A stretch of DNA of 5,879 nucleotides, taken from assembly GCF_003334815.1 (NCBI RefSeq), contig NZ_QOWO01000071.1. The stretch is one strand, 5' to 3'. The position numbers and the translations under genes were made by a program. The notes under the pieces were generated by a model that was given only the letters and a program-made list of their open reading frames with translations, ran no database searches and was not told where the DNA came from. This DNA comes from Escherichia coli. GTDB lineage: Bacteria > Pseudomonadota > Gammaproteobacteria > Enterobacterales > Enterobacteriaceae. Shown in pieces: positions 1,549 through 1,584 of this stretch (position 1 is the first letter of the stretch; each line of letters begins with the position of its first letter).

Positions 1549-1584
1549 ATGCCCGATAACATTTTGCTTATCGGGCATTTTTAT
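1549..1584. terminator. Intrinsic terminator hairpin between convergent lgoT and tsr (perfect 11-bp stem, 8-nt loop, T-tract on the + strand)
   Basis: ATGCCCGATAA (1549-1559) and TTATCGGGCAT (1568-1578) are exact reverse complements, with loop cattttgc. The stem is followed by TTTTAT on the + strand, which terminates lgoT 8 nt after its stop. On the - strand the hairpin begins 11 nt after the tsr stop but is followed by agggagat, so the U-tract is poor in that direction. Confidence 0.75.

Follow-up and report, generated by a model that had tools for sequence, protein, structure and literature searches.

The gap between the convergent genes lgoT and tsr of Escherichia coli raises the question whether, and by what means, one stem-loop can define the 3' ends of two transcripts that run towards each other. 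The window (the whole stretch of DNA that was analysed, 5,879 nucleotides) contains E. coli lgoT, tsr and btsT (3616-5781, plus strand), and its alignment to K-12 shows 98.7% identity across 78-5802; the LgoT protein is likewise 98.7% identical to K-12 b4356. The names lgoT and tsr were confirmed via the RefSeq annotation of matching genomes. The two coding sequences face each other across an inter-stop gap of 48 bp (1542-1589):

180..1541, plus strand: lgoT coding sequence (L-galactonate:H+ symporter, 453 aa), stop codon TAA at 1539-1541; from the ORF list and the RefSeq annotation of matching genomes
1590..3254, minus strand: tsr coding sequence (serine chemoreceptor, 554 aa), stop codon TAA at 1592-1590; from the ORF list and the RefSeq annotation

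The reading that we favour, with slightly better than even confidence, is that one stem-loop plays two roles: it would be the terminator of lgoT and, for tsr, a U-less 3'-end stem at which read-through is followed by trimming, while a sigma-28 promoter overlapping it would be incidental.

The stem-loop and the end of lgoT

The elements of the gap are the following:

1549..1559, readable on both strands: hairpin 5' arm ATGCCCGATAA, invariant in all sampled E. coli classes
1560..1567, no strand: hairpin loop of 8 nt, CATTTTGC, from sequence and folding
1568..1578, no strand: hairpin 3' arm TTATCGGGCAT, from inverted-repeat analysis
1579..1584, plus strand: lgoT-side T-run TTTTAT (TTTCAT in K-12-type strains), from a terminator scan hit and alignment
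1541..1548, minus strand: tsr-side tail AGGGAGAT (AAGGAGAT in K-12), which holds no U-run (T score 0.06)

The initial annotation had described a single perfect 11-bp hairpin between the stop codons, common to both genes and asymmetric in that a T-tract follows it only on the lgoT side, and each of these points held. The arms are 100% complementary over 11 bp, including 5 G:C pairs, and the stem begins 7 nt past the lgoT stop and 11 nt past the tsr stop. The RNA folds stably on both strands, with -15.5 kcal/mol (plus) and -16.4 kcal/mol (minus), corresponding to z-scores of -5.0 and -5.5; none of 200 shuffles folded equally well. By an arithmetic estimate, only ~0.01 perfect stems of at least 11 bp with a 3-10 nt loop are expected by chance per 5.9 kb, and the lgoT-tsr hairpin is the only G+C-containing inverted repeat of such size in any inter-stop gap of the window. 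With a d'Aubenton-Carafa-style weighting, the T-run score is 3.5 on the lgoT side (2.71 in K-12), versus 0.06 on the tsr side, where the tract seen earlier to be other than T-rich reads AGGGAGAT on the minus strand (1548-1541). The element is a stem-loop common to two convergent genes, which is canonical one way and a U-less 3'-end stem-loop the other way.

The closest textbook relative is the bidirectional intrinsic terminator, with which the gap shares one G+C-containing stem-loop between the stops, a T-run on one side and a mapped 3' end adjoining the stem. The classical form differs in having an A-run upstream and a T-run downstream, such that both RNAs receive a U-run, whereas here the U-run is on the lgoT RNA only and the tsr RNA gets AGGGAGAU. 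A symmetric bidirectional intrinsic terminator was ruled out, as the T-run is found on the plus strand only and the plus-strand flank upstream of the stem, TCTCCCT, holds no A-run.

On the lgoT strand, a stable stem-loop just past the stop, followed by UUUUAU, has all the parts of a Rho-independent terminator, and judged by this sequence the hairpin most likely ends lgoT transcription. The plus-strand tail after the stem reads TTTTATGG (1579-1586). Its T-run is modest (four U, A, U), weaker in K-12 (UUUCAU) and absent in Citrobacter. The plus-strand RNA past the hairpin, antisense to tsr, is rich in C over G (C/G 1.3-1.9), so that Rho could back up the modest lgoT terminator. No lgoT-strand 3' end near 45933xx is listed in the tables of PMC10687069, Adams 2021 or SMRT-Cappable-seq, in which lgoT was probably uninduced.

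The 3' end of tsr

For tsr, mapped 3' ends could be transferred from K-12. Window position x corresponds to MG1655 4593361-(x-1541), a conversion obtained through locus L003, which places the hairpin at 4593324-4593353. In the RNAtag-seq data of PMC10687069 (Supplementary Data 2 and 4), a K-12 plus-strand 3' terminus has its peak at 4593353-4593363, with the dominant position 4593357 and a signal of 0.52; in its LB dataset, the primary tsr terminus is 4593359, corresponding to a 48-nt 3' UTR. A second terminus on the tsr strand lies at 4593550-4593563 (dominant 4593555), with a signal of 0.94 (PMC10687069). Their equivalents in the window are:

1543..1545 (peak bounds 1539-1549), minus strand: equivalent of the K-12 tsr mRNA 3' end; from PMC10687069 and coordinate mapping
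1340..1354 (dominant ~1347), minus strand: equivalent of the second tsr-strand 3' end, inside antisense lgoT, about 200 nt downstream

According to the coordinate mapping, the K-12 tsr ends 4593357 and 4593359 lie 4-6 nt past the last base of the stem (4593353). Far from being placed away from the hairpin, the mapped tsr ends directly adjoin it: the tsr mRNA ends at the hairpin in K-12, with substantial signal continuing beyond. The reported signal is the ratio R = L/(L+D), i.e. 1 minus the local read-through, derived from RNAtag-seq read starts, and should not be read as an efficiency of termination; for the canonical terminator of btsT, the same sheet gives 0.96 (PMC10687069). The suggestion of the initial annotation that tsr termination may be leaky, with antisense read-through into lgoT, is accordingly upheld in part: an R of 0.52 versus 0.96 and a further end ~200 nt on speak for it, but termination and trimming are not separated by these values. 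The second end (~1347) is accompanied by neither a protective structure (local folding z -1.4 to +1.2) nor a hairpin nor a U-run. Candidate origins are read-through from tsr, a site of Rho action or of cleavage, and an independent antisense transcript. The Term-seq and Rho tables of Adams 2021 hold no tsr, tar or 4593xxx entries, and the absence of tsr and tar is probably due to a poorly motile strain; the SMRT-Cappable-seq supplements have no entry at the hairpin.

These ends could arise in the following manner. On the tsr strand, the -16.4 kcal/mol stem followed by AGGGAGAU defines where the tsr mRNA ends at steady state, as the K-12 ends show. Efficient intrinsic release of RNA polymerase needs a U-run. 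Because the tsr strand has none, most polymerases would not be released at the stem, although for a minority the stem itself may be the point of termination. The polymerases that stay bound would transcribe on into antisense lgoT until Rho or some other mechanism stops them downstream. The read-through RNA may then be trimmed back to the hairpin by 3'-5' exonucleases, and the hairpin would also protect the tsr mRNA. The trimming step is proposed by analogy with the model of Dar and Sorek 2018, in which Rho-dependent E. coli transcripts end just past stable low-uridine stem-loops that protect them from PNPase and RNase II (PMC6061677). As in those cases, a stable stem-loop without a U-run lies directly upstream of a precise 3' end, with signal beyond. 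The present locus differs from them in two respects: an A-run precedes the stem (the complement of the lgoT T-run), and C-over-G enrichment is missing for ~200 nt downstream. Within 200 nt downstream of the hairpin, no Rho loading site was found on the tsr-sense RNA, where C/G is 0.5-0.95 in 78-nt windows; the ratio exceeds 1.4 only at 390-470 nt downstream. As C/G stays low for ~200 nt, there is no obvious Rho loading site where the Dar-Sorek model puts one.

This shortage of a clear downstream C-over-G region for Rho is also a point in favour of the main alternative, namely that the hairpin acts on tsr by itself, as a leaky intrinsic terminator which releases the polymerase in roughly half of the rounds without a U-run and lets the rest read into antisense lgoT. 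A 3' end 4-6 nt past a -16.4 kcal/mol stem, an R of about 0.5 and a further end downstream are what such a terminator would yield. However, its tail would have 1 U in 8 (T score 0.06) where efficient release calls for a U-run, and ends so near a stem are also produced by exonuclease trimming. Direct leaky termination is hence regarded as a doubtful, though serious, candidate; on the tsr strand we rank read-through followed by trimming above it, and rank it in turn above termination of the collision type, which is best discussed together with the promoter that overlaps the hairpin.

A FliA site overlapping the hairpin arm

The 5' arm of the hairpin also contains the -10 region of a FliA (sigma-28) site, which the initial annotation did not mention. 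The sites concerned are:

1533..1560, plus strand: FliA promoter motif AAAGATTAATCTCCCTATGCCCGATAAC, from a ChIP-seq site and a position weight matrix (PWM), reading antisense into tsr
1532-1539 and 1551-1560, plus strand: elements of this site, -35-like gAAAGATT and -10-like (G)CCCGATAAC, with the predicted start at ~1566-1567 in the hairpin loop
3284..3311, minus strand: canonical tsr sigma-28 promoter TAAAGTTTTTCCTTTCCTGGCCGAAAAT, PWM top hit with 22.7 bits; PMC4183435 Table 2, fold-above-threshold (FAT) 94

The hairpin arm GCCCGATAA resembles the sigma-28 -10 element GCCGATAA, and the last lgoT codons give a -35-like TAAAGATT 11-12 nt upstream of the arm, for which the window has instead gAAAGATT, with G as the first base. 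Compared to the consensus (TAAAGTTT, 11 nt, GCCGATAA), the site thus reads gAAAGATT, 11-12 nt, (G)CCCGATAA. Fitzgerald et al. 2014 list AAAGATTAATCTCCTTATGCCCGATAAC as the FliA ChIP-seq site 'tsr/yjiZ convergent', occupied in vivo in K-12, with a FAT of 3 (PMC4183435 Table 2); the peak centre is 4591362 and the motif centre 4591380 in NC_000913.2 coordinates (PMC4183435). In the direction of the motif, the peak centre lies 18 nt downstream of it, an offset like that at genuine FliA promoters; the window coordinates are ~1563 for the peak centre and ~1566.5 for the predicted start. With a PWM built from the other 51 sites, the hairpin site scores 10.0 bits, which is the second best score in the window; the training median is 17.0, and about 2.6 chance matches as good as 10.0 bits are expected per window. 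In the Fitzgerald 2017 preprint, FliA-dependent lacZ activity was obtained from one of two convergent-intergenic sites, and insB-4/cspH had a high background, so that by elimination the active site should be tsr/yjiZ convergent. The FliA motif is not kept in the hairpin region of Citrobacter (3 genomes compared).

Such a promoter would start an unstable, unstructured and C-rich antisense RNA in the hairpin loop; it is predicted to lack structure (z = +0.95). Because it would not contain the 5' arm, it could not form the lgoT terminator and would escape it. No terminator was found for the predicted antisense RNA, a weak hit at 1639-1653 being no better than shuffles. We regard the site as a weak and probably incidental promoter, of the type known as 'pervasive FliA promoters', and the promoter is most likely a by-product of the resemblance between the arm GCCCGATAA and the -10 element GCCGATAA. 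It has in common with the weak, non-conserved FliA promoters of Fitzgerald et al. (2014, 2017 preprint) that it is a catalogued site with a low ChIP score and a correct motif-peak offset, and probably also an unstable antisense RNA ended by Rho. Its differences from them are that it is one of only two catalogued convergent-intergenic sites and that its -10 element is the arm of a terminator hairpin. More generally, a terminator arm that doubles as a sigma-28 -10 element illustrates how promoters, spurious or co-opted, can arise from hairpin sequence.

Collision-driven bidirectional terminators between convergent genes were reportedly found by SEnd-seq (Ju et al., 2019). Applied to this locus, a collision or roadblock would mean that the tsr polymerase is halted at the hairpin by a converging polymerase, which comes from lgoT or from the FliA promoter. 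As in the cases of Wang et al. 2022 (10.1101/2022.10.23.513370), a convergent pair has a stem-loop between its boundaries, here between the stops as the model requires, and the tsr strand is unlike a canonical intrinsic terminator; moreover, FliA holoenzyme occupies the hairpin spot in motile cells, when tsr is transcribed. The model, however, needs transcription from both sides, whereas lgoT appears silent in the datasets examined, where no lgoT-strand 3' end is seen. FliA occupancy is weak as well (FAT 3 vs 94 at the tsr promoter), and the FliA motif is not conserved outside Escherichia. We thus consider a collision improbable. Less probable still is the specific variant in which sigma-28 both starts tsr and, with the polymerase of the hairpin promoter as roadblock or collision partner, helps to stop it. 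If that were true, the sigma-28 roadblock would make up for the absent U-run and, at the very times of strong tsr transcription, hold down antisense read-through into lgoT; the FliA-driven antisense RNA could in addition adjust how stable the tsr 3' end is.

Both the tsr 3' end (PMC10687069) and the FliA site (PMC4183435) are already known, as they are contained in published tables. The hairpin finding is real, largely ordinary and modestly informative: it matters little beyond annotation and adds one more documented convergent-gene hairpin with asymmetric ends.

Conservation and the alternative occupant of the gap

A 71-bp segment around the hairpin is found as one copy per genome in 4518 of the 5426 complete E. 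coli genomes, which means that the hairpin is not a dispersed repeat. Stem and loop are invariant in the representatives of each E. coli identity class, and the flanks vary at 1542, 1547 and 1582. A search of genome contigs returned at least 120 loci, many of which are paralogous chemoreceptor genes; among the matches listed, 6 loci have both lgoT and a tsr ortholog or remnant, and the two genes are directly adjacent in L015, L072 and L114 (Citrobacter) and in L004 (E. albertii).

In the three Citrobacter genomes with adjacent lgoT and tsr, a hairpin straight after the lgoT stop has the same core GCCCGAT/ATCGGGC. When the stem pairs of Escherichia and Citrobacter are compared by anchoring on this shared core, two pairs outside of it, at the stem base, turn out to be exchanged in both arms (T:A to A:T, A:T to T:A), with pairing retained. 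In E. albertii, a 10-bp stem is kept, whereas 3 of the 8 loop positions are changed. The invariance of stem and loop within E. coli, next to variable flanks, and the retention of the stem with compensatory swaps across species indicate that the stem is under structural constraint. The Citrobacter lgoT-tsr gap spans 82-93 bp (L114 2862-2943, L072 9592-9673, L015 6743-6835) and contains two hairpins, the lgoT-type stem and, next to the stop codon of tsr, a REP-like one, GCCGGATG...CATCCGGC. Neither hairpin has a T-run on either strand; the T-run is specific to Escherichia.

Two loci show the hairpin in altered surroundings. In E. albertii NBRC 107761 (L004 5660-7400), tsr is decayed, with only N- and C-terminal fragments left and many stops, and the lgoT-side hairpin with a better T-run (TTTTCTTT) is retained despite this decay, which agrees with a functional tie of the hairpin to lgoT. 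In E. coli strain 205 (L128 788-1500), an IS1 is located between the lgoT stop and the hairpin; it cuts lgoT off from its presumed terminator, and the hairpin stays with tsr.

Not all E. coli carry this arrangement. About 16% of the tsr-matching E. coli genomes (~866 of 5383) are without lgoT, and in these the homology to the window begins only at 1583-1590, right at the stop codon of tsr. The place of the lgo genes is taken by a TRAP-transporter operon convergent with tsr:

L001 2965-3006 and L002 2959-3000 (E. coli 97-3250 and PEC1013): TRAP-type gap, TRAP operon next to tsr

The 42-bp gap of this type contains a different stem-loop, ACGCCGGATGA/TCATCCGGCGT, of about -20 kcal/mol, whose T-run TTTTTATTATT (score 4.59) faces tsr; there is none on the TRAP side. 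The whole tsr 3' UTR, hairpin included, belongs to an exchangeable cassette (lgoT or TRAP), and the T-run asymmetry flips between the two alleles, a swap that the initial annotation did not mention. In a pangenome study, lgoT and these TRAP genes never co-occur (10.1101/2023.03.20.533463), a mutual exclusion that is explained by their being alternative occupants of one site. Two natural controls are available in this way: TRAP-cassette E. coli, with the asymmetry flipped, and Citrobacter, with no U-run on either side. They provide a convenient test bed for telling termination from 3'-end trimming.

That the palindrome is mainly a DNA-level element, such as a protein-binding site or a mobile repeat (e.g. 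REP) whose position between the stops is incidental, is barely credible: the sequence is palindromic as DNA, a REP-like hairpin lies beside the Citrobacter tsr stop and a similar stem is present in TRAP-type E. coli, but the element is single-copy in 4518 genomes and has no Rfam match, and the compensatory swaps keep the pairing, not the sequence, with the loop varying and the stem kept. The Rfam search of the hairpin gave no family match, only sub-threshold noise with E about 0.7-0.8. A REP/BIME repeat was ruled out, given one place per genome in 4518 genomes and a sequence unlike the GCCGGATG-type REP beside Citrobacter tsr.

Some further observations concern the remainder of the window, which is apparently a contig with an IS copy at either end. 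Positions 1-77 are the end of an IS5-like element (ISKpn26 family), inserted 102 bp upstream of the lgoT start; through the insertion, lgoR is lost together with half of the region between lgoT and lgoR, and lgoT may consequently be mis-regulated or silent in this strain. The junction of the IS5-like element with the lgoT upstream region is also present in 73 complete genomes, including HS30-1. At the other side, positions 5803-5879 are the terminus of an IS3-family, IS150-like element, which interrupts the terminator hairpin of btsT after GCCCCGCTTCGG, a point at which the K-12 sequence goes on with CGGGGCTTTGTTCTT; this junction is present in no complete E. coli genome of the collection. The divergent tsr/btsT control region contains, at 3396-3425, a perfect 13-bp inverted repeat, ATAAATATGTGAT/ATCACATATTTAT, with TGTGA-N6-TCACA inside, which we take to match the CRP consensus; the repeat is probably the CRP site of btsT.
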